Part shown: in pieces, positions 15,927-55,583 of the stretch
Layout: every line of letters begins with the position of its first letter
How positions within the stretch are numbered: the stretch's first letter is position 1
From: Octopus vulgaris
Lineage: Eukaryota
NCBI GenBank assembly: GCA_951406725.2
Contig: OX597827.1
Coordinates: 49,414,001-49,478,000 of the forward strand
Length of the DNA: 64,000 bases
Direction: 5' to 3'
Position numbers and translations under genes: made by a program
Notes under the pieces: generated by a model
Databases searched by the model: none
Told to the model about the DNA's origin: nothing
The model's input: only the letters and a program-made list of their open reading frames with translations

Positions 15927-16020
15927 ATACCATATAAAATATATATATATATATATGTATGTATGTATATACCATATAAAATATATATATATGTATATAC
16001 CATATAAATATATATATATA

Positions 16021-18041
16021 TCGCACTGCTTGAATCCAAAAAATATAACCTCCAACAATGCATGAAGACCCTCATCAATAACCAAAGATCAGCTGAGGAG
16101 AAGTGGGCCATTGAAAAAATCAAACTCAACCCCAAAGTGTTCTTTTCATTTGCGAGGAAACGCAGGGTCACTGTCTCCACTGTAGGCCCTCTAATTGACG
16201 AAACTGGCACTCTCCAAGATAATGCCAAATCCATGGCCGAGATACTGCAGAAACAATACTGCTCTGTTTTCAGCAATCCTGATATGGCCGATCTGGGCTG
16301 TATCAGTGATGTCAACCCCCAACACACTATATCGGACATAACGTTTAGTGCCCCTGATGTCTTAGCGGCGATAAACGAAATAAAACACAATTCAGCAGTA
16401 GGCCCCGATAGGTTCCCTGCTTGTGTCCTGAAGGTGTGTCGACACCAACTTGCATCTCCCCTTGCTAATCTGTGGAGAAACTCACTGGATGCTGGCTATA
16501 TTCCAAAAAACCTTCTGTCCCAGTCTGTTGTCCCAGTTTTCAAAAAGGGAAACAAGTCCCTTGCAGTGAATTACCGTCCGATCTCACTCACCTCTCATAT
16601 CATCAAGGTATTTGAGAGGGTGGTGAGATCTCAAATAACCCAATTTCTGGAAAGCAACAGACGGCTGATCTCCAACCAACATGGGTTCCGTAATGGAAGG
16701 GACTGCCTAACGCAGCTCCTGCACCACTTTGAGGACATTTTGAGAGCTTTGGGAGAGGGCTCCAACACCGATGTCATCTACCTTGATTTCAGTAAGGCCT
16801 TCGACAGGGTCGATCACAAGATCCTATTGAAAAAACTATCCAACATTGGTGTCTCTGGAAAGTTACTGAAATGGATTAAGTGTTTCCTGACAGACAGATC
16901 TCAACATGTTGTAGTTGAAGGGGTAAAATCAAGCCCAGCCAAAGTCAGTAGTGGCGTTCCGCAAGGCACTGTGCTGGGCCCACTTCTTTTCATCATTTAC
17001 ATTAATGACATTAATGACATTAATGACATCATCAAGCACAGCAACATAAAAATCTTTGCAGATGACTCCAAGCTACAGAAGGTCATAAATGAGGCGAGTG
17101 ACCGGACATGCCTTCAGTCAGATCTACTGGCTGTTATCCAATGGGCAGAAAAAAACAATATGCTGCTGAACGAGGATAAATTTGAGCTAATCCACTTTGG
17201 AAAAGAGGATGCCCTGAAACTCCCATACTCCCTTCCTTCAGGTGAAACTCTCACGGCGTCCAACAACATCAGAGACTTGGGAGTAATTGTGGACAACAAC
17301 GTAAGCTGGGCCACTCATATAAACACCAAAGTTGACATGGCCCGCAGAATGTGTTCCTGGATTCTCAGAACTTTCCAGTCGAGAGATATCCACACCATTA
17401 TCCTTCTCTTCTCCACTTTTGCCCGACCCCACCTTGAATACTGTTGTCCACTGTGGTCTCCCCACACAATACAAGGTATCATAAAAGTCGAAGCACCTCA
17501 AAGGGCAATCACAAAAAAGATAGATGGCATGACAGGCCTCGACTATTGGGGTCGACTAGAAAAGCTAAAACTCTATTCTCTCCAACGTCGTCGTGAGCGC
17601 TACATCATCTGCATGATGTGGAAAATATTCCATCAGCATTGCCCAAATGATGTTGGCATCACCTTTAAGGTACATCCAAGGCTTGGGCCCCGTGCCATCC
17701 GCCCAAAACAAAAATCGCACTCTCATCTCATAACAACAAAAACAACAATACGGCACAATTATTTCACCTCAATTGGCCCCGCTCTCTTTAACATTACACC
17801 AAAACACATTAAAACAGAAACTGACCCTATAGGGTTCAAGAAGTCTTTGGACAGATTCCTTCAAGAAATCCCGGATAAACCCCCTACACCCGGATATGTC
17901 TCTGTAAACAATAACTCTCTACTTGAGTGGGCCATAGTGCCCAAATTCTGACTTGAAAGACTTCACCAGGTGGTGCTATTAAGTTAGACATGGCCTGGGC
18001 CAATAATGGCCGAAACCTATCAAAGTATCAAAGTATCAAAG
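16021..18041 (+). mobile_element. 5'-truncated CR1-group non-LTR retrotransposon inserted into a minisatellite
   Basis: Frame open from the left junction; short 3' UTR with GGCCA-ATAA-TGGCC hairpin; terminal (TATCAAAG)x3 at 18018-18041; TA runs on both sides. Confidence 0.92.
16062..17951 (+). CDS. LINE ORF2 reverse transcriptase (endonuclease domain lost by 5' truncation)
   Basis: 629 aa without stops; motifs [56 protein letters not shown]. Confidence 0.95.
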
Positions 18042-21211: not shown

Positions 21212-21864
21212 GTAATGGTTTCAAACTTTGGAACTGTCCCAGGAGTTTTTGAAGGGAGAGGAAAGTCTGAAATTTGGCGGAAGGGAATTAGACGATTATA
21301 TCGACTCCCAATGCTCAACTGGTATTATTTCATAGACCTCGAAAGTATGCAAGACAAAGTCGACCTCGGCGGTATTTGAACGCAAAGACAGCCGAAATAC
21401 CTATTTCTTAATTACACACAAGGGGCTAAACATAGAGGGGACAAACAAGGACAGACATAGGTATTAAGTCGATTACATCGACCCCAGTGCGTAACTGGTA
21501 CTTAATTTATCGACCCCGAAAAGATGAAAGGCAAAGTCGACCTCGGCGGAATTTGAACTCACAACGTAATGCAGACGAAATACCTATTTCTTTACTACCC
21601 ACAAGGGGCTAAACATAGAGGGGACAAACATGGACAGACATAGGTATTAAGTCGATTATATCGACCCCAGTGCTTAACTGGTACTTAATTTATCGACCCC
21701 GAAAGGATGAAAGACAAAGTCGACCTCGGCTCGAATTTGAACTCACAACGTAACGGCAGACGAAATACCGCTAAGCATTTCGCCCGACGTGCTAACGATT
21801 CTGCCAACTCGCCGCCTAAGCATTTTGTCAGGCGTGCTAACGTTTCTATTAGCTAGCTGCCTTA
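21212..21864 (-). mobile_element. SINE family B nested/tandem multimer
   Basis: An older copy interrupted by two 183-185-bp body+tail units (21401-21583, 21584-21768) and a head. Confidence 0.85.
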
Positions 21865-28712: not shown

Positions 28713-28925
28713 TATGTATGTATGTGTGTGTGTTTGTCCCCCCCCCCACGCACACACACACAACATCGCTTGACATTAGATGCTGGTGTGTTTACGTTCC
28801 CGCAACCTAGCTGTTCAGCAAAATGTGACCGGTAGAATAAAGTACTAGGCTTGGGGTCGATTTGCTCGACTAAAAAGAAAGGTGATGCTCCAGCATGGCC
28901 ACAGTCAAATGACTGAAACAAGTAA
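28460..28925. repeat. Two SINE A 3' halves in inverted orientation around a (TA)n(GA)n run
   Basis: 28460-28598 is the reverse complement of most of 28730-28925. Confidence 0.8.
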
Positions 28926-28989
28926 AAAAAATTAAAAGAATTGTTATTAATAGGCACGGGAGTGGCTGTGTGGTAAGTAGCTTGCTAAC

Positions 28990-30468
28990 GAGCATGCGTC
29001 GAGTTGTTTACTGTGTCAAGTTTTGACTAGGCGGACAGAATCCTTTGAGCTGCTCGCCAGCGGTTTGTTGCCGAGTGGAAAATAATGTATTCGGACCTTA
29101 GCGAGTACGAGCTGTCCACATCTGAGGAGGAGCTCGTTAAGGCCGTGAACAGGATGGACCAACATTTGGAGAAAATGAAGAGTTTTGCTGACGCGGCGGG
29201 AGTGAAGAGAAAGGAAGTGGACCTGACTGAACTGAAGGAGCTGTATAAGATGACACAGAAGGTGGGAAGTGACGTAAAGTTACTACCCCCGAAAACGGTC
29301 ATGGTGAATATGGAAAGGAAAACCATCACCTACAAGGTGCACTCAGTGGAGAGTAGGAGAGTGGAGCAGATGAATATGGAAAAAATAGAAAAAGCTCTCA
29401 AGGGGCTTTCGAACGAAGTAACATACATAGCAAACGGAAGCGGATATGGGACGGTGGTTGTCCAGTTTAAAACAGAGGAGGAGGCGAGGAGGCTGGCAAG
29501 TGCAACCGTAAAAGCTGAGGAACTGGTGCTTCTACCCTCTTATCTTGGAAGAAAAAATTCTAAGGTGAGGGTAGAAAGAATTCCACCTGACATAAAGGTG
29601 GCTTGGGTTGCGGCAGCCGTCCTCGTTGGAAGTGAGGAGGTGACTGTCCTCCAAGCCACAGAGACAGAGGAAAGAAGTTACAAAGGAAAATTACTGGAAA
29701 TGACCATACAAGCGGAGGCGAAGGAGCTGGAAAATTTGGCGGAAACGGTGTCAGTGGGAGAAATGGTACTGAGAGTATGGGTAGAAGGCAGAACCCCGCG
29801 GTGCTTTAAATGTGGCCAAAAAGGCCACATTAGAGCACACTGCCCCCTACAGAAGAAAAAGAGGAAAAAATAGATGAACCAGTTGCGGAGACAAAGAAGA
29901 AAAAAGAGGACGAAGACAAAGACGGACGAAAGGAGGTTGAATGGATAGTAGCAGAGAGCAGAAGTAAGAAGAGGAAGAAAAGAAAGAACACTGAGTGTGA
30001 AATGGTACCCCAGTCCAACTCCATCCCACCCAAGACCACTCAGACCCACCCGCCCCATACAGACACCAGACCCACCCACTCCCTTTCCCCACAAGAAAAA
30101 AAGAAAAAGAAAAAAGAGCAGACACCACAGAATTCAGAAGACCCCTCCCCCGGTGAAAAAGGTTGCGAAAGAAAGTTGTCTTTAAGTGATAGCGAGAATG
30201 GAAAAAAGAAGGACTAGACCAGAGATTAGAGAAGAATTCAGACTCAAAGGCAGCGAGTGGTGTTGCTCAGAGTGGGGTGAGTAGCACACTCGTCATATTT
30301 CATACTTCATTTTCAGATATCATGCATGTTATCATAAACTTAATTTATTTTCTCACGTTCATTTTCATGTCACTCACAGTATCATTTTATTTTTAATTGT
30401 TATATGTCTCCACATGTTTTTGTAGTGTCCCCTCTATGTAATGCCTTTATGGCAAAATAGTTGAAATA
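28990..30468 (+). mobile_element. Complete ORF1-only non-autonomous retroelement (Tx1/L1-type gag knuckle) inserted into a SINE
   Basis: Exact 15-bp TSD AAGTAGCTTGCTAAC at 28975-28989 and 30469-30483, splitting a SINE head. About 95-bp leader, ORF1, U-rich 3' UTR, terminal stem-loop and AATAAA; no RT sequence. Confidence 0.9.
29085..30217 (+). CDS. ORF1/gag-like protein with CCHC zinc knuckle; one frameshift near 29845
   Basis: ORF 29085-29873 contains a possible RRM-like segment (GYGTVVVQFKTEEEARRL) and VEGRTPRCFKCGQKGHIRAHCP. An acidic/basic then Pro-rich tail continues in another frame to TAG at 30217, colinear with the 36-kb homologue, implying a 1-bp loss in the CCCCC run. Confidence 0.8.
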
Positions 30469-30638
30469 AAGTAGCTTGCTAACCAACCACATGGTTCCGG
30501 GTTCAGTCCCACTGCGTGGCATCTTGGGCAAGTGTCTTCTGCTATAGCCTCGGGCCGACCAAAGCCTTGTGAGTGGATTTGGTAGACGGAAACTGAAAGA
30601 AGCCTCGTCGTATATATGTATATATATATATGTATATA

Positions 30639-30694
<56 letters not shown>

Positions 30695-32799
30695 CTGTGT
30701 TTGTCCCCCTAGCATTGCTTGACAACTGATGCTAGTGTGTTTACGTCCCCGTCACTTAGCGGTTCGGCAAAAGAGACCGATAGAATAAGTACTGGACTTA
30801 CAAAAAGAATAAGTCCCGGGGTCGATTTGCTCGACTAAAGGCGGTGCTCCAGCATGGCCGCAGTCAAATGACTGAAACAAGTAAAAGAGAAAAAGAGAAA
30901 GAAAGAGAAAGAGAATAGTATTGATACCTATTTAACTTTAAATTATTCAAAATCACGATATGTTCGTTTTGAATGTCGTGGGGGCATTCAACGTGCCACG
31001 CGCTGTTACTGAACTCGGTACTATGTGACCGGGAAGCAATTTTATTTTTTAAGCCACATAGCCATACCTATTCATATACACATTTAAAAACTTTAGGATT
31101 TCAGAAATTAGAAAACTTACAATACATTAAAAACTGAGGTCGTATCGTGCACCAGAGAGGTCGAACTTCGTCACTTAGAAGTTGCTATGTCCGTCTTCCG
31201 AAATAATATTAAGTTTCAGTGCTATTTTTCCAAAAATAGCTTTTAATCATTCCAACCAAATTTTAATGTATGAACTGCAAATGTGAAGATAAAATCTTCA
31301 ACGGCCAGAAATTAATCAATATGTTTTAGTCAGTAAAATTATGTAGCAGCATATTTTATAAACATAAAAAGAAATTGCTGTGGCTTTTAAACGTTAAAAA
31401 AAAATCGGTTCTTAGCTACCCGATAAGTCAATGTAAAAAGCTAAGAATGTCGTGACATTCAGAATATTAAAAGTGTAATATATCAGAATATAATAAACTC
31501 CAATAAGACATGGTATAAAGAGCAATATTGACATTTCGCTACGTGTTGTATGTAAAATTCTATCCAATGTCTTTTTTCCATATCTTTCCAGTTACGTTCA
31601 AATGCGTAGGAACGTTTTCTTCCTGAAAGAAACTATTAGCTCAACCAAATTAACCTAACTCGGCCAAAAGATAATTAGAGATGAGACAACAGAATTATTT
31701 TAGAACCATTCCTGCAAATTCAGCATGGTTAACACATCAAAATGTAAGATAATACGAAAATTATATTTTTAAAAGGAAACATTTTCACCAAGTAGTCTAA
31801 AAACCAACCAGGGTTACAATACAATGTGAAAGGATTATGAAGTTTAAGAGGAATCATTTTCATTTATAGAATCAAAGAAAAGGGGGTGAAATAAGTGGAG
31901 AAATGAATTCAGTTTCATTGGATGACACACACAGCTTATTCACTTGCTTTGACGCTGGAATGGAGAGGATTCCAACTATTTCGTTTCCTCTAGAAATTCC
32001 CCGACCTCCGAAATTAAAACTCCAGCACTGAGTGTTGTTGACGTTTTCAGCATCCTTTCTTTCGTCTTTGTAGGGAATTCTGTCGGGAATCATAACCAGT
32101 TTCATCGGTAAACTTTAGTATGGGTTACTTATTTTTGATCTTGTTTTAAACAACGTTTTTCAGGTCGATTGTTATACCCTATTTTCTAAATCTGAGAGTG
32201 AGCCATTGAAAGCATGAGGGTGGAAGCATTGTCATCCAGCGTCCCATTTTCTCCAATTCGCCACTGGATCTTTCCACCATCCACATTGGGAACCATTGAT
32301 CCATTCACCACCGTATGCGTCACAATCTATTCCATTCACAGACGGGTTACAGCAACACTCAGCGCATTAGTGATTACTTTAATCTCAATGATTCCCAAAG
32401 TAGGAGACGGGAAGATCCAGGGAGCCGCTGGAGCAAAAGTGAGACGAAAGTCGCGTGACCAAAAGGGAGCGCTGGATGGCCATGCCCACCACACACGCAT
32501 CCACTTTTTAATGTTGCACTCTTCAGATTTAGAAAATAGGAGACGTTTTTATGAACAAACATTGAAGCGTCGAACGATTGGTATTTTAGAAATGAAAGAA
32601 CTCTCGAACTCAGGAGAAGCGCTGTAGAAATAGCCTAAAGGATCGAACAAAATACCCTTATAGGCTGAAAACACGTGGCCAGAAAGCTGCTACAGAGAAC
32701 TGAACTCTGGGACTCACGTTTCGGCTGAGCTAAACAACTCCCGACATTTCTGAAACACCAACCACTCGACATTTCAAGGTTTATAAAAATGTTCTCATA

Positions 32800-33760
32800 T
32801 TCGAAACGTTTTATCCGGTATATGACACCATCTGCAAACCGCTATATGACCATTCTTTTATATGACTTATTGTGCCATCTTTAATACGGCGTATTTCACT
32901 TCATGTAATCCCGAGATGTGCAACATATAGCACCACTTTCAATCCGGCTTATTGAACCACATTTCGTATTAAAGTTCCGTCATTTGCCGAATTAAAGGTG
33001 GTGCCATATGCCGATGTATTCCGGATTTAAGATGGTATAAATATGCCGAATTACAGGTGGTTCAGTATTTTGGATTAAATGGGCGAATTACGCCAGATCC
33101 AGATTAGGAGTGGTAAAATATGTCGGATTACAGGTGGTACAATATACTGCATTGCATGAAATAACATTTACCGGATTTAATTAACGGCGGAAAATTCCGG
33201 ATTAAATATCAGAATATAATAAACTCCAATAAGACATGGTATAAAGAGCAATATTGACATTTCGCTAAATGTTGCATGTAAAATTCTATCCAATATCTTT
33301 TTTCCATAGCTTTCGTTATGTTCAAATGCGCAGGAATATTTTCTTCCTGAACGAAACTTAACTCAACCAAATAATAATTAGAGATGGTACAACAGAATTA
33401 TATTAGAACCATTCCTGCAAATTAAGCATGGTTAACATATCAAAATTTAAGATAATAGGAAAATTATATTGGTAAGAAGAAACATTTTCACCATGTAGTC
33501 TAAAAACCAACCAGAGTACAGGATTAAAAGTCGTTACATATACCGGAATAATGCCGTGGCCATATCCCGCATTAAATAGTCAATACGCCAGATTACGAGC
33601 GGGGAAATATACCTGGTAGAAGGTGGTCATATAGCGGATTAAAGGTTGTACTATATGCCAGATTACTTGTAGAAAAATATACCAGATTGAAGTGGGTTCT
33701 ATATGCTCAATAAAATAAGGAATCATGCCGGAAATGAATGTACCATATGCAGGGCTAAAG
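32800..33760. repeat. Degenerate 20-25-bp repeat array (CCGGATTAAAGGTGGT-like) with an orientation switch near 32970
   Basis: ATCCGG-type units on the left, CCGGATT-type units on the right; interrupted by 33206-33514. Confidence 0.6.
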
Positions 33761-35120
33761 ATAGTACAGTACACCCCTCAGTCGGTTTTAGTTTGCCGTG
33801 GTGTTTGTGTACTTGCACATTGAGATTAGTAGAGAATGAAAATGTTTTTCTAGGGGAGCGCGTGAAAATGATTAACACAGAATTTTTATTTACTGCACTT
33901 GGTATTTCCTGCGTCGGTATTTTGATGTAAAATAACAACGACAATTATACGCAGGGGAAGAGATGTGATGTATATAAATTCTAACAAAGAAATTGATGTT
34001 TATGGAAGTAGCCAAAAACATTTTTAAATTAAGAAACTACTTGTAACCACCAGCCAGTTTAGCATCGATAATGGTATCTATTTCATATACATCAAGAGTT
34101 TAAGAGTAAAGGTTCTCCAGTTTATGCGGAAAACAGCCATTCAATTCTGCTAAAAGCCCAACTACAAATTAGATATTTGTAGGAAATCTTATTAACTAAT
34201 TTTGCTCTGATTAACAGATTATACAAATGTCGACAATGGACAATAACGAAAAAAAAAAAGCAATATCTGCAAACGATATTTAAAGAAATATTACTTTTTT
34301 TTTCCTTCGGCAAAATAGAAATTTTATGATTATTCCAAAAGGATAATTCAGCCGCCTTTTTTCTTGGGGTCGAGAGACGGTATAGGTTTTAAAAGATCTG
34401 AAAATGACAGGCTTACAAAAGGAGAATAGTTTTTTTGTTTCCATATTATTTTGTTCTGTTACGTTCCATTAGTTTCATTTTTTTATCAGATATATTACTG
34501 TTCTTCATTCGAACGGGTCGTGGCAGGAGAACAGAATAGACGGACGGCCAGTCCGATTGGTTTCGATTTCAAGTAGCTAGCGATTGAAGAGCCACAAGAA
34601 AATAAAAATTATATCAAAATTTTAGTAATAAAAACACGAGGAAACTGACGTGAAGGAAACCAATTGATTAAAAGCAAGACAGAAAATGTCATTAAAAAGC
34701 ATAAAATAATAAATTTCAAGTTGTAAAAAAACAAAAAGAAAAATTCTGCATTCATTACTGTTGAAAATGTTTACAATAAATTTCAAAAGAAATATTTCCC
34801 AGTAAAAAGATTATGATATTTAAATATGTGATTGAGTGGGTGACATTCTTCTCAGACAATAGAGTTTAAAATAAAACAAAATGCGTTAACTACCCTTCAG
34901 ACATCTCTTCCGTCGACTGTGAAAGGCTAACATCTGCAAACAGACACTTTTTATTTTTTTAATGTTAACATTCCGACTAAGTTCCGTTGACTTAGCAGCA
35001 GCAACAAATCTCAATGCGTCACACGTTCAGATTTCTTTATTTTAGCACACGTATACATATAAAATGCAGAAAGCTTAGGATGAGTTCAAATTGTTTGTAT
35101 GCTGTGTGTGTGAATGAGAG

Positions 35121-35838
35121 TATTTCTTTATTACCCACTAGGGGCGACATAGAGGGGACACTACAAGACATTGGGGACATAGAACATTATAAAAATAAAA
35201 GTATGTAAGATGAAATTTTGAAAATGATAATATGAAAGTGATGCTAACGGTCCCATTCCGCTAGCACCACTTACCTGTCCTTCATAACCTATCATCCACT
35301 GTCATCTCCAATCAGAAGCCCTATATTCACTATCATTCTCTCAGTTCTCTCTTCATACTCCTTCACTACCACATCCATAAATCTCACCTTAGTCACCTTC
35401 ACACCCTCATTTAAAAACAACTCTCCATAATTGCATCCATCAGTCCCTTTGGCACTACTGCATAACTCCCATCTACTCTCTCATACCATGAATAATTATT
35501 TATAATGTCTTTCAAATTTTCAGTGTCCTCCTTTTTCACGAAACATAGAATATGGGGCTTGGGATCTTGTTTACTCTCTTGTGTGTCTGTGTTATTTTTT
35601 TGTTTTCTTGTAGGCGGGGAGTGGGTGGAATAACTGTTTGCAGGGGGAGGATGGGACTCAGAGGGTGCGGGTGGGTTGGGGTTCAATATAGTTCAATTTT
35701 CTTCTTTTTCTTTTCTTTCTTGCATCTTCCCATTTGGTCTGGGCTTCCTCCTCCTCAGTCTCTTCCTCAACTTGTTTCTGCTCCACCTCCTCCTTTTCCT
35801 GGTTCACAGTTTCCTTTTGTGGGGGAGGGCAGTAAGCG
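35121..35838 (-). mobile_element. 5'-truncated copy B of the ORF1-only family, directly downstream of copy A
   Basis: Starts at AYCPPPQKE, has YSWY..YAV domain with frameshifts; tail tgtcccctctatgtcgcccctagtgggtaataaagaaata. A+B together are flanked by a 16/17 TSD (35104-35120 and 36633-36649). Confidence 0.85.
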
Positions 35839-35839
35839 A

Positions 35840-36632
35840 TTTCTTTATTACCCACTAAGGGGCTACGAAGAATGGCGGACATAACAAAACATGGGGACAT
35901 AGAACATTATAATTAAACTTTATGAAAATGAATTGTTAAACGAAAAAAAATGATAAAATGAAAGCGATACCAACGGCCCCGTCCGTCAGCATCACTTACC
36001 TGTCCTTTGTTTTTCATAGTCACTTGAATGTTCTTTGCCAATACGAATAAATTCCATATCCATTCTTACTCCGAAATACTCATTCATATTTTCCACGAAT
36101 TCATCGCTCATTCTTATATCTTTCACCTCCCAATTCTCCCTTTCACACCTCTCCATAAACTCACCTATGTTCTTCTTTTCAATCACAGCATACCTAGTCT
36201 CTCCAACATCATACCATTTATACTCTTCCATTAGACTTTTAACTTCCCTCTGTTCAGTCATAGTACAAATGTACGGCCTGGGTTCGATTTCAATCTCTTG
36301 TGTGAGTGTATTCTTTTTTTTCTTTTTGTTTTCTTGTTGGGGGGGAGCGGGTGGGTTCAATGTCTGCATGGATAGGGTGGGACTCAGAGGGTGTGGGTGG
36401 TTTTGGGGTAGATTGGAGTTCCATATTATTTTCTTTTCCACGTATTCTTCTCTTCCTCTTACTTCCAGCTTCCTTCCATTTCTGTGTATTCTCTTCCTCT
36501 GTTTCCTTCTCCTCTGGTTTCTGCTTCTCTCTCTCTGGTTCGGAATCCATTTCTTTCCCTGGGGGAGGGCAGTAAGCTCTTATGTGGCCCCTCAGGCCAC
36601 ACTTATAGCATCTTGGTGCTCTGCCCTCCACC
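35840..36632 (-). mobile_element. 5'-truncated copy A of the ORF1-only family
   Basis: Encodes VEGRAPRCYKCGLRGHIRAYCPPP, a charged/Pro-rich linker and a YKWY..YAV domain; ends ...gccccttagtgggtaataaagaaa. Confidence 0.85.
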
Positions 36633-37639
36633 GTGCGTGTGAATGAGAGAGTAATTTCTATAATCAGTGTTTCTTTGCACGTGCTTGGCTGCAAATTTTG
36701 AAACCACAACAATTAAATGGATGAAATAATTGGACCATTCTATTTCATCAAAAAATGTTTTTAATCATAAAACACTCTGAATGAGGTAAGAGAGTTGGTT
36801 GCAGTTTCATTCCCAGATAGGTGAGCATTTAATCAGTCTTATTATTTTAATATCTTAACGCGGCGAGCTGGCAGGACCGTTAGCATGCCGAGCGAAATGC
36901 TTAGAAGTATTTCGTCTGCCACTACGTTCTGAGTTCAAATTCCGCCGAGTGCCCTTAATGCTCAAATTCGTTTCATGTGTTTATCGACCCCTTCGAGTCA
37001 ATAATAACCACTTTACCAGCCCTTGTCCCTGACAGACTGTCTAAATTAAAAGAAGAAACCACAGGATGCTCATGCCTTTAACGGCTTTGATCTGCATGAT
37101 GCGGGAGTGAGAAACAACTACAGCTACAATAGTATCGAACCCAAGAAGAGCACCTCTGGGAAGTTGTTCATGTAGTTAAACATAACCGAATTTCCTTAAA
37201 GTAAACGACCTTTCGGCTTCAAACAAAAGAAAAACACGTTGGAAAAATCTACATAAAAGAAACGAAAAAATACGAAGCGTTCAGATCGGTTACGTCTTTC
37301 ATCATAATTCATCATAACAATACTAAGGACTAAACAACAACAGCTAAACTTTAAGCTTAGGGCATCTATCGGTTAAAGTCGGGCAAGGTTAACAATGAAT
37401 CTGCACCAATATGCGTGGTTTAGCGGTTAGGGTATTTAGCCCAAGATATTAAGGTAGTGCTGTCCTTGAGCAAGACACTTCATTTCACATTACTCCAGTC
37501 CACTCAGCTGGCAAAAATGAGTTGTATCTATAATTGAAAGGGGCCAGCCCTGTCGCCTTCTGTGCCACGCTGAATCTCCCTCAGAGCTACATTAAGGGCA
37601 TGCGTGTCTGTGGTGTGCTCAGCCACTTGCAAGTTAGTT

Positions 37640-38662
37640 GGATCTTTTCTGTTTGATAGACGGAATTTTCTACTTAACTAAACAATTTGAAACTTCGTAT
37701 ACTGGTAGAATGTGTCAAAAGAAAACATTATTGTAAACAAAATTGAAAACAAAATTGTAATTCGTAACTTAAACGTAGTTTAATTTTTACGAATTTTAAC
37801 CAATGAAATCCCAACATCTTCGAATTTTAACCAATGAAATCCCAGCATTGCTGCGTTATCGATATTGATAAAGAAATATAGGAGACGCACGACACACACA
37901 CACACACACACACTCTCTCTCTCTCTCTCTCTCTCTCTCAAACACATGCATATACATTTGCATAAGCACATAGTAATTAATATATAAGCGTACACACACA
38001 TACAAACGGACATATACATACACATACGCACACAAGCAAAAATACCCGTTCGTGTTTTGCCACTTGCCGCAACAAATTTGCACAAAAGGTAAATAAACCA
38101 GAAGGGGGGGGTCAATGTTTCATCGTTTCGGGGTCGATAAATTAAGTACCAATTACGCACTGGTGTCGAGGATTTTTTCCCCAATTTATATCACAGCTTC
38201 CGACAAGCTGGGGGCATCCTTTTATGAAAAAATATTTCGCAAATTTTTACAATACTACTCACACTCCACGCGCAAACTCGAGACCGATTTAGGCATATCA
38301 TTGTTTTGTTTTTGTTGTTTCTGACCCTTCAAAACCATGGGAGAAGCCTTTTCGGTAAACGAAATTCATCGATTTAAGAGATATAGCTGTTATTTCTAGC
38401 ACATGTAGAAGACAGAAGAAGAGACAAGGATGAATAAGACGTGTGCGTGTGAGTTTTTAGATGCAGTAAATAATTTGAGCTCGAATGCTGCGATTTCATT
38501 GGTTAAAATTCGTAAAAATTAAACTACGTTTAAGTTACGAATTACAATTTTGTTTTCAATTTTGTTTACAATAATGTTTTCTTTTAACACATTCTACCAG
38601 TATACGAAGTTTCAAATTGTTTAGTTAACTAGAAAATTCCGTCTATCAAACAGAAAAGATCC
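37640..38662. mobile_element. Non-autonomous long-TIR DNA transposon, Merlin-like
   Basis: About 170-bp near-perfect TIRs starting GGATCTTTTC; exact 8-bp TSD AGTTAGTT (37632-37639, 38663-38670); splits a SINE. Confidence 0.88.
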
Positions 38663-38950
38663 AGTTAGTTTCTCGAGCAGCCTGTTTCTTTCATCGGATC
38701 AACTGGAACCCTCGTCTTTGTAACCGACGGAACTACTATTATTATGCGCAGACCCATGAAAGTCTTTTTTTCTTTCTTCAGTTTTCTCTGCAGCAGACAA
38801 GTTCCTTTCCCCTTGCCCCACCAGCAGTATCGCCAAAAGGAGAGGTTGCTTCACCTTGGTATCAGAGTTGCCTCGCCAGACGTTGTCTTCTGAACGCAAA
38901 GAACCGGAACAAATGCTACAAAACTGCCAATCCATCGACTTAGATAAACA

Positions 38951-42329: not shown

Positions 42330-42661
42330 CTTGGCAGAAACGTTGGCACGCCGGGCGAAATGTTTAGCGATATTTCGTCTGCCTTTGCGTTCTGAGTTCA
42401 AATTCCGCCGAGGTCGACTTTGCCTTTCACCCTTTAAAATAAGGCGGCGAGCTGGCACGCCGGACGAAATGCTTAGCTGTATCTCGTCTGTCGTTACGTT
42501 CTGAGTTCAAATTCCGCCGAGGTCGATTTTGCCTTTCATCCTCTCGGGGTCGATTAAATAAGTACCAGTTTCGCACTGGGGTCGATATAATCGAATTAAT
42601 CCGTTTGTCTGTCCTTGTTTGTCCCCTCTATGTTTAGCCCCTTGTGGGTAGTAAAGAAATA
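42330..42661 (+). mobile_element. SINE family B, partial head plus full copy
   Basis: GGCGGCGAGCTGGCA head, GCCTTTCATCCT.TCGGGGTCGAT core, tail GCCCCTTGTGGGTAGTAAAGAAATA. Confidence 0.85.
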
Positions 42662-55349: not shown

Positions 55350-55583
55350 TATTTCTTTACTGCCCACAAGGGGCTAAACACAGAGGAGACAAACAAGGAC
55401 AGACAGAGGGATTAAGTCGATTACATCAACCCCAGTGTGTAACCGGTACTTAATTTATCGACCCCGAAAGGATGAAAGGCAAAGTCGACCTCGGCAGAAT
55501 TTGAACTCAGAACATAACGGCAGATGAAATACGGCTACGCATTTCGCCTGGCATGCTAACGTTTCTGCCAGCTCGCTGCCTTT
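55350..55583 (-). mobile_element. SINE family B, full length (intronic)
   Basis: Reverse complement of 42442-42661. Confidence 0.85.

Follow-up and report, generated by a model that had tools for sequence, protein, structure and literature searches.

Three copies of a retroposon lie in the 64-kb stretch of Octopus vulgaris DNA analysed here (hereafter the window), and each carries a stable hairpin near the end of its ORF1 region. The question this locus raises is whether these hairpins act as RNA and, if they do, what role they would have in an element that encodes only an ORF1 protein.

An ORF1-only retroposon and its relatives

The copies, their target-site duplications and the coding region of the full-length copy are arranged as follows:

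28990..30468 (+): full-length ORF1-only retroposon of 1,479 bp (the 29-kb copy), without ORF2 and without terminal repeats, inside a SINE-like repeat
28975-28989 / 30469-30483: perfect 15-bp target-site duplication of the 29-kb copy
29085..29873 (+): 5' part of ORF1, encoding an RRM-like region and a single CCHC zinc knuckle; past the knuckle the frame is interrupted, and it resumes in a different frame as far as 30217
35838..36636 (-): copy A, truncated on its 5' side, just upstream of the zinc knuckle
35121..35837 (-): copy B, likewise 5'-truncated, in this case at the knuckle end, and head-to-tail with A
36637-36649 / 35108-35120: one 13-bp target-site duplication common to A and B

The original prediction had described these as ORF1-only copies, and this proved correct: no second ORF lies between the target-site duplications, and neither a reverse transcriptase (RT) nor an endonuclease domain is present in the 72 ORF1 relatives scanned. 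An LTR element or provirus was rejected, given that self-comparison of the 29-kb copy revealed no terminal repeats and that pol is lacking. The marks of target-primed retroposition are present, namely target-site duplications, 5' truncation, a fixed 3' end and no LTR; the copies end in GAAATA or GAAATC without poly(A), and the 3' end at 35121 recurs with varied flanks in 41 and 60 contigs. We infer that the element is a non-autonomous octopod derivative of a non-LTR (LINE) element, and the A and B dimer within one target-site duplication suggests template jumping. Summed contig depth in run X1, which is not a copy number, amounted to 470,000-582,000 over the bins of the A hairpin versus 6-1,300 over most of the B interior, and suggests that subfamily A is very abundant.

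The full-length copy sits within a member of a second SINE-like family, close to that member's 5' end (28960-28989, 30469-30890), and another copy of the same family ends just upstream (28770-28930). Elsewhere in the window, 37639-38663 carries 179-nt terminal inverted repeats, 98% complementary and 667 nt apart, and is probably a non-autonomous DNA transposon.

Within ORF1, the zinc knuckle was matched above the cut-off (zf-CCHC, E=3e-4) and the RRM-like region below it (RRM_3, E=1e-3). Searches found 435 relatives; 10 of the 20 that were looked up are Octopus or Argonauta proteins and the others MetaClust, Logan or ENA entries, and PF00098 matches 20 of the 36 aligned. Five ENA proteins of 350-860 aa (P0065, P0104, P0130, P0150 and P0158) carry the ORF1 core and a C-terminal motif in common with octopod relatives; by this resemblance, the ORF1 family may reach beyond octopods. 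HAL1 proper has an L1 type II (Transposase_22) ORF1p and a poly(A) tail, and this identity was rejected given that Transposase_22 had no match in 36 family members and that the GAAATA/GAAATC ends lack poly(A). RRM together with zf-CCHC is the make-up of type I ORF1p (PMC5203782, in the part available), and the parent ORF1 was probably of this type, as in Tx1/L1-like elements. Matches from a PDB sequence search with ORF1 were confined to the knuckle and low-complexity parts; atlas matches to CCHC proteins of arthropods and to RNA-binding domains of the ZCCHC3 type (0.88-0.91) are leads only. DNA searches with ORF1 returned 26 and 2 loci, mostly knuckle-only matches, none of which was used, with 0 in prokaryote genomes and none among plasmids, and the 3'-tail pattern had 0 matches in metagenome and prokaryote contigs. 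The active O. vulgaris families listed in the available portion of PMC13282606 are L1-Tx1, RTE, CR1, Dong-R4 and Penelope, and that portion does not describe the present element.

The hairpin and the conservation of its pairing

The three hairpins are:

35236..35272 (-): copy B; 15-bp stem, 7-nt G-rich loop, in-frame TAG at 35263-35261 inside
35962..35997 (-): copy A; 15-bp stem and G-rich loop of 6 nt, the 5' arm including the ORF1 stop TGA at 35994-35992
30254..30292 (+): 29-kb copy; 15 pairs plus one bulged G, 8-nt G-rich loop, donor-like GTGAGT at 30277

Stems of 13-15 bp with G-rich loops, each followed by a U-rich tract, had been proposed at these three places; re-inspection of the sequence confirmed all three in position, together with the loops and the tract, and the 13-bp cores first recognised in A and B lengthen to 15 contiguous pairs. 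Sense-strand minimum free energies were -23.5, -21.3 and -23.2 kcal/mol for B, A and the 29-kb copy, with z scores of -5.96, -4.41 and -4.58, and 0 of 200 shuffles were as stable in each case. The opposite strand gave -15.6, -7.7 and -12.1 kcal/mol, so that the sense strand is the stabler one throughout. Hairpins A and B are among just 9 uninterrupted stems on both strands of the window (non-low-complexity stems of at least 13 bp with at least 4 G-C pairs). Loop sequence and length differ between the three copies (6, 7 and 8 nt), yet all loops are G-rich. Over 28900-37000, Rfam gave 13 weak matches, none at the gathering score and none covering a hairpin.

Of the 30 stem positions, 6 differ between copies A and B, a rate similar to that of the adjacent UTR (17 of 111). 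All six are pair-keeping transitions that amount to one-sided wobble changes, with 0 two-sided changes; transitions account for 6/6 differences in the stem versus 4/17 in the adjacent UTR (Fisher p=0.002). In neutral simulations, all 15 pairs were retained with a probability of 0.0009-0.0012 at the observed transition fraction of 0.40, 0.009-0.012 at a fraction of 0.7 and 0.07-0.09 when every change was a transition, values that are optimistic given that the stem was chosen post hoc. Comparison by eye with the 29-kb copy adds one clean change from A-U to G-C and four inner pairs altered on both sides; these four seemingly compensatory pairs may represent one block replacement. In an unfitted MAFFT alignment of the three complete hairpins (n=3), covariation was not significant, with 123 of 500 shuffles scoring as high. 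Of the covariation originally claimed, pair-keeping is thus borne out by the significant one-sided test, whereas two-sided covariation is not, being absent between A and B and matched by shuffles at n=3. Selection at the RNA level fares similarly: G-U-tolerant pairing on the sense strand holds, but compensatory changes appear only against the 29-kb copy, where they are not significant.

A neutral origin is conceivable in the form of a DNA-level quasi-palindrome, made or repaired by template switching. The resemblance of the inner four pairs of the 29-kb copy to a block replacement would suit it, as would the repetition of GAGTGG in the arm and loop of that copy. DNA repair, however, gives Watson-Crick pairs, yet the stems hold G-U pairs (4 in A, 2 in B); moreover, the opposite strand of hairpin A barely folds (z only -0.87), and all point changes preserve RNA pairing. 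We regard this explanation as highly improbable.

Variants in other genomic copies, drawn from four public runs, add independent support to pairing conservation. Among the best 40 of 158 substitutions and 12 of 50 indels, the B hairpin has a loop A>G change (35251), a loop deletion (35256) and a change from A-U to G-U (35262), and the A hairpin has none, despite the highest summed depth of the stretch; four of the listed changes fall in the U-rich tract right after it. The listed substitutions all reach about two-thirds of depth in some run, so that rarer stem-breaking variants may exist.

The direction of these changes raises a second possibility. Five of the six A/B stem differences are A/G, at adenosines opposite U, and both substitutions listed in the B hairpin are sense A>G; given this bias, ADAR editing fixed by retrotransposition could yield the wobbles, in which case pair-keeping would reflect mutation bias rather than selection. 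Cephalopods have high ADAR activity. Five of the eight A-U pairs vary versus one of the seven G-C pairs (one-sided p=0.08), a pattern that selection would also produce, as it too tolerates a change from A-U to G-U more than one from G-C to G-U. At 35262, G makes up 51% and 34% of depth in DNA runs and is found in 3/3 contigs of an RNA-type run, a difference that compares different individuals as well as paralogues. A 15-bp stem is a marginal substrate, and editing leaves the existence of the stem in the diverged 29-kb subfamily unexplained. Element-wide A>G hypermutation was rejected, since no excess remained once base content was normalised (5.3 vs 6.4, 4.3 and 4.1 per 100 sites in X1; X4 and X11 were similar). 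Fixed edits are in our estimate quite unlikely to account for the pairing. Conservation of an RNA structure is the reading we retain: that the hairpin forms and counts at the RNA level is likely, and this is firmer than any assignment of the hairpin to the loading of ORF1p.

Further hairpins were picked from a scan of ORF1; the three in the 29-kb copy were then tested against synonymous-codon nulls:

29530..29576 (+): hairpin in coding sequence, 19 bp interrupted by a 2-nt bulge, burying the donor-like AAG/GTGAGG at 29565 (slash, cut site); matched in stability by 1-2 of 1500 synonymous shuffles
29598..29659 (+): hairpin in coding sequence, containing internal loops; matched in stability by 0 of 1500 synonymous shuffles
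29798..29843 (+): hairpin spanning the codons of the zinc knuckle; matched in stability by 0-2 of 1500 synonymous shuffles
36582-36602 (-): shorter zinc-knuckle hairpin in copy A; 72-176 of 1500, not significant

As the three hairpins of the 29-kb copy beat their synonymous nulls, the whole RNA looks folded under constraint. In A and B, no window other than the 3' hairpin reached z<=-3, and a 1.5-kb control had 1 of 146. The 5' truncation points of A and B (36564-36629 (-) and 35837) both flank the zinc-knuckle hairpin, and truncation at this place could mark stalling of the RT. Protein P0002, probably a gene model, joins the N-terminal half of ORF1 to an unrelated host-like stretch exactly at AAG/GTGAGG (29565).

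Stop codon and candidate splice donor at the end of ORF1

The hairpin had been assigned to the start of the 3' UTR. This describes the 29-kb copy, in which it lies 36 or 97 nt after the candidate stops, but not subfamily A, in which the stem overlaps the ORF1 stop. Both in-frame stops of A and the one of B sit in the stem, where their A's pair with U; 11 of 31 O. vulgaris protein clusters with A's C-terminal module end in RTGK directly before the stop, and a stop within the stem is therefore typical of subfamily A. The suggested role in translation termination is weakened, because the distance between hairpin and stop differs in the 29-kb copy. In a broader version, termination, readthrough or reinitiation would be under the control of the hairpin, itself a relic of the ORF1-ORF2 junction of an autonomous parent. 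The paired stops of A and B are what one would expect of such a relic; nevertheless, no conserved frame follows, indels shift the frames among A, B and the 29-kb copy, stop spacing differs in the latter, and a weak search of long ORF1 fusions (1092-3115 aa only) found no ORF1-RT fusion. We consider a junction relic very improbable, and a selenocysteine or readthrough ORF was rejected given that no conserved frame continues past the stop.

Two candidate splice donors adjoin these stems:

35994..36002 (-): exact match of copy A to the 5' splice-site consensus, CAG/GTAAGT, with the cut falling between 36000 and 35999
35269..35277 (-): exact match of copy B to that consensus, CAG/GTAAGT

The perfect donor 9-mer is found at A and B only, in 128 kb counting both strands, and a search of both strands of the window finds CAGGTAAGT exactly twice, once in A and once in B. 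That the stem overlaps this donor, as originally stated, is correct for positions +3 to +6 and not for the GT. The latter falls immediately beyond the 15-bp stem; in B it is unpaired (p 0.01), in A partly paired. A and B agree in all ten of the unpaired bases that precede the stem, and sequence further upstream diverges. CAG/GTAAGT is absent at this place from the 29-kb copy, which has GTGAGT instead, at the loop and 3' arm.

Gene models also bear on this donor. The 31 clusters (O. vulgaris P0170-P0200) are gene models on the C-terminal module of subfamily A; 12 have two or three units, which suggests tandem or clustered copies like A and B, and some are fused to host domains (HAUS1, HTH). Models bearing the module are likely annotation contamination or exonisation. 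The module breaks after RT 32 times (leaving out one further case that continues GK), and at 30 of these 32 breaks the residue that follows has a codon starting with G, versus a background of 37%, which fits a phase-1 cut at the donor and implies that the donor has been kept in many subfamily-A copies. The O. vulgaris annotation, from which these models presumably derive, mixes ab initio and transcript evidence (PMC10700109, in the part available), and model breaks at the donor thus do not establish splicing. None of 9 listed joints in two runs, judged RNA-type by guess, used either donor, in contigs that drop rare forms; three contigs from runs of this guessed type cross A's donor unspliced.

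One explanation for this arrangement is that the stem tunes access of U1, half-burying the donor at the last ORF1 codons, so that the intron-less RNA escapes splicing and its 3' processing is not blocked completely. There is a precedent in the Ty1/Copia retroelement EVD, in which U1 at a donor at the end of gag represses premature termination (PMC5580714, in the part available). The restriction of the perfect donor to A and B, the identity of the ten bases before the stem amid diverged upstream sequence and the retention of the donor in subfamily A are all consistent with it, as are the GTGAGT held in the 29-kb hairpin and the AAG/GTGAGG buried in the coding hairpin of that copy. Against this, the GT is unpaired or only partly paired, one of the three copies lacks the donor, and a donor that did harm could be silenced at lower cost by mutation of the GT than by a 15-bp stem. 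In addition, pairing at the 10 donor-like hexamers of the three copies does not significantly exceed that at 495 control hexamers (p=0.11), by which a general donor-masking rule was rejected. With no junction listed either, we would call U1 tuning, and with it the U1 masking first envisaged, unlikely, if deserving of some weight.

Candidate roles and comparison with known systems

What the hairpin does may be approached through the 3' tail, which the element has in common with a SINE:

35121..35160 (-): last 40 nt of B, common with SINE copies (81-88%), with a small terminal stem-loop, ending in GAAATA without poly(A)

This identity of 81-88% is that with four SINE copies of the window, and it is exactly at 35160 that contigs depart into SINE sequence, with loose ends at 35121 and 35160. 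The large hairpin has no match in the SINE copies, which share the last 40 nt only; as they have the tail and lack the hairpin, the hairpin is specific to the protein-coding element. The shared tail suggests that the SINE uses the same enzyme as the element, and if so, the large hairpin is not what that enzyme needs. SINE copies with the tail lie at 21402-21780 (-), 42400-42661 (+) and 55350-55560 (-) and carry a 13-bp hairpin of their own near the 5' end; ARAGORN detected no tRNA in the SINE, which is presumably of tRNA origin. Two copies are joined as a tandem dimer, and its junction sequence appears again in the loose ends of many contigs, which suggests preferred tandem insertion.

A partner LINE was not found, in the window or in the weak protein search for ORF1-RT fusions. 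The window holds a 647-aa open RT frame at 16008-17951 (+) (RVT_1, E=1.6e-29), which ends in short tandem repeats and presumably belongs to a CR1-like element; it was rejected as the partner given its different tail.

The location of the hairpin in the 3' region of a retroposon invites comparison with the stem-loops read by the RT of stringent LINEs (ZfL2, UnaL2), whose ORF2 proteins bind their cognate 3' stem-loop (PMC4176376, in the part available). The octopus hairpin, however, lies 115, 124 and 176 nt from the 3' end in the three copies, outside the 40-nt tail; that tail has a small stem-loop of its own, and the loop sequence of the large hairpin is not conserved. The large hairpin is probably not the RT-recognition stem, and we think this role hardly likely.

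We favour, tentatively, the view that the 15-bp hairpin acts in cis in the RNA and likely serves, at the end of the ORF, as the place where the zinc-knuckle ORF1p encoded by the element itself is loaded. CCHC knuckles can bind exposed guanosines. RNP assembly, among the roles originally put forward, is plausible for a hairpin accompanied by a CCHC ORF1. Under the proposed mechanism, the RT of a partner LINE would recognise the SINE-shared 40-nt tail, and freshly synthesised ORF1p would attach in cis to the exposed G-rich loop as translation is completed. The ORF1p-RNA particle so built might then recruit the partner enzyme, as has been proposed for the proteins of HeT-A, HAL1 and Ag-Sponge; in subfamilies A and B, an added advantage would be that the U1-complementary donor is partly buried. 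This interpretation must be made cautiously. Evidence against a loading site comes from the distance between hairpin and stop, which is not fixed (overlap in A and B, 36 or 97 nt in the 29-kb copy), and from the variable distance to the 3' end; in addition, the A/G character of five of the six A/B changes could also be explained by editing. A more elaborate scenario, in our view a long shot, would make the hairpin a switch, in which ADAR editing of U-paired adenosines, stops included, and binding of ORF1p together choose between access of U1 to the donor and particle assembly. If this were true, thousands of copies could donate an ORF1 C-terminal exon to host transcripts.

To our knowledge, how ORF1-only LINE derivatives secure the RT of a partner has hardly been examined so far. 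In the octopod family, a defined cis element can be separated from the SINE tail, and very many natural copies are available for covariation analysis. The family is also a natural test of whether cephalopod A-to-I edits get written into retroposon DNA. For octopus annotation, dozens of O. vulgaris gene models (the 31 clusters) have arisen from its perfect donor, which contaminates the gene set, and the element may be exonised.

Bipartite non-autonomous LINEs of the "ORF1-present" kind include HAL1 (L1), HeT-A (Jockey) and Ag-Sponge (CR1) (PMC5786205). Like these, the octopod element encodes only an ORF1-type nucleic-acid-binding protein, has target-site duplications and would depend on a partner RT; unlike them, it has an ORF1 of a different family, no poly(A) and a 3' tail in common with an abundant SINE, and the available part of PMC5786205 makes no mention of a stop-covering hairpin with a perfect donor. 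With ZfL2-1 and ZfL2-2 (PMC4176376, in part) it shares a pair-conserved stem-loop near the 3' end and a tail common with a SINE, although its hairpin lies outside that tail and has a variable loop, which makes the small terminal stem-loop the better analogue. As in EVD, a consensus donor stands at the end of a structural-protein ORF; in contrast to EVD, the octopus element is non-LTR and has no pol, no conserved acceptor was found, no splicing was seen, and the donor lies partly in a stem. The SL2 and SL3 packaging hairpins of HIV-1 combine a donor-containing hairpin and G-rich loops with a CCHC zinc-knuckle protein. The octopus element likewise places a donor-containing hairpin with G-rich loops beside a CCHC protein, where binding is putative, but its hairpin stands at the 3' end of an ORF, in a non-viral element and with no sequence relationship. 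A literature search returned no description of the family or its hairpin; the Zenodo repeat library and the supplement of PMC13282606 may contain the family. Set against this literature, ORF1-only elements and retroposon 3' stem-loops are known, and what appears to be new is this family, together with a stop-covering, donor-adjacent hairpin outside the SINE tail.
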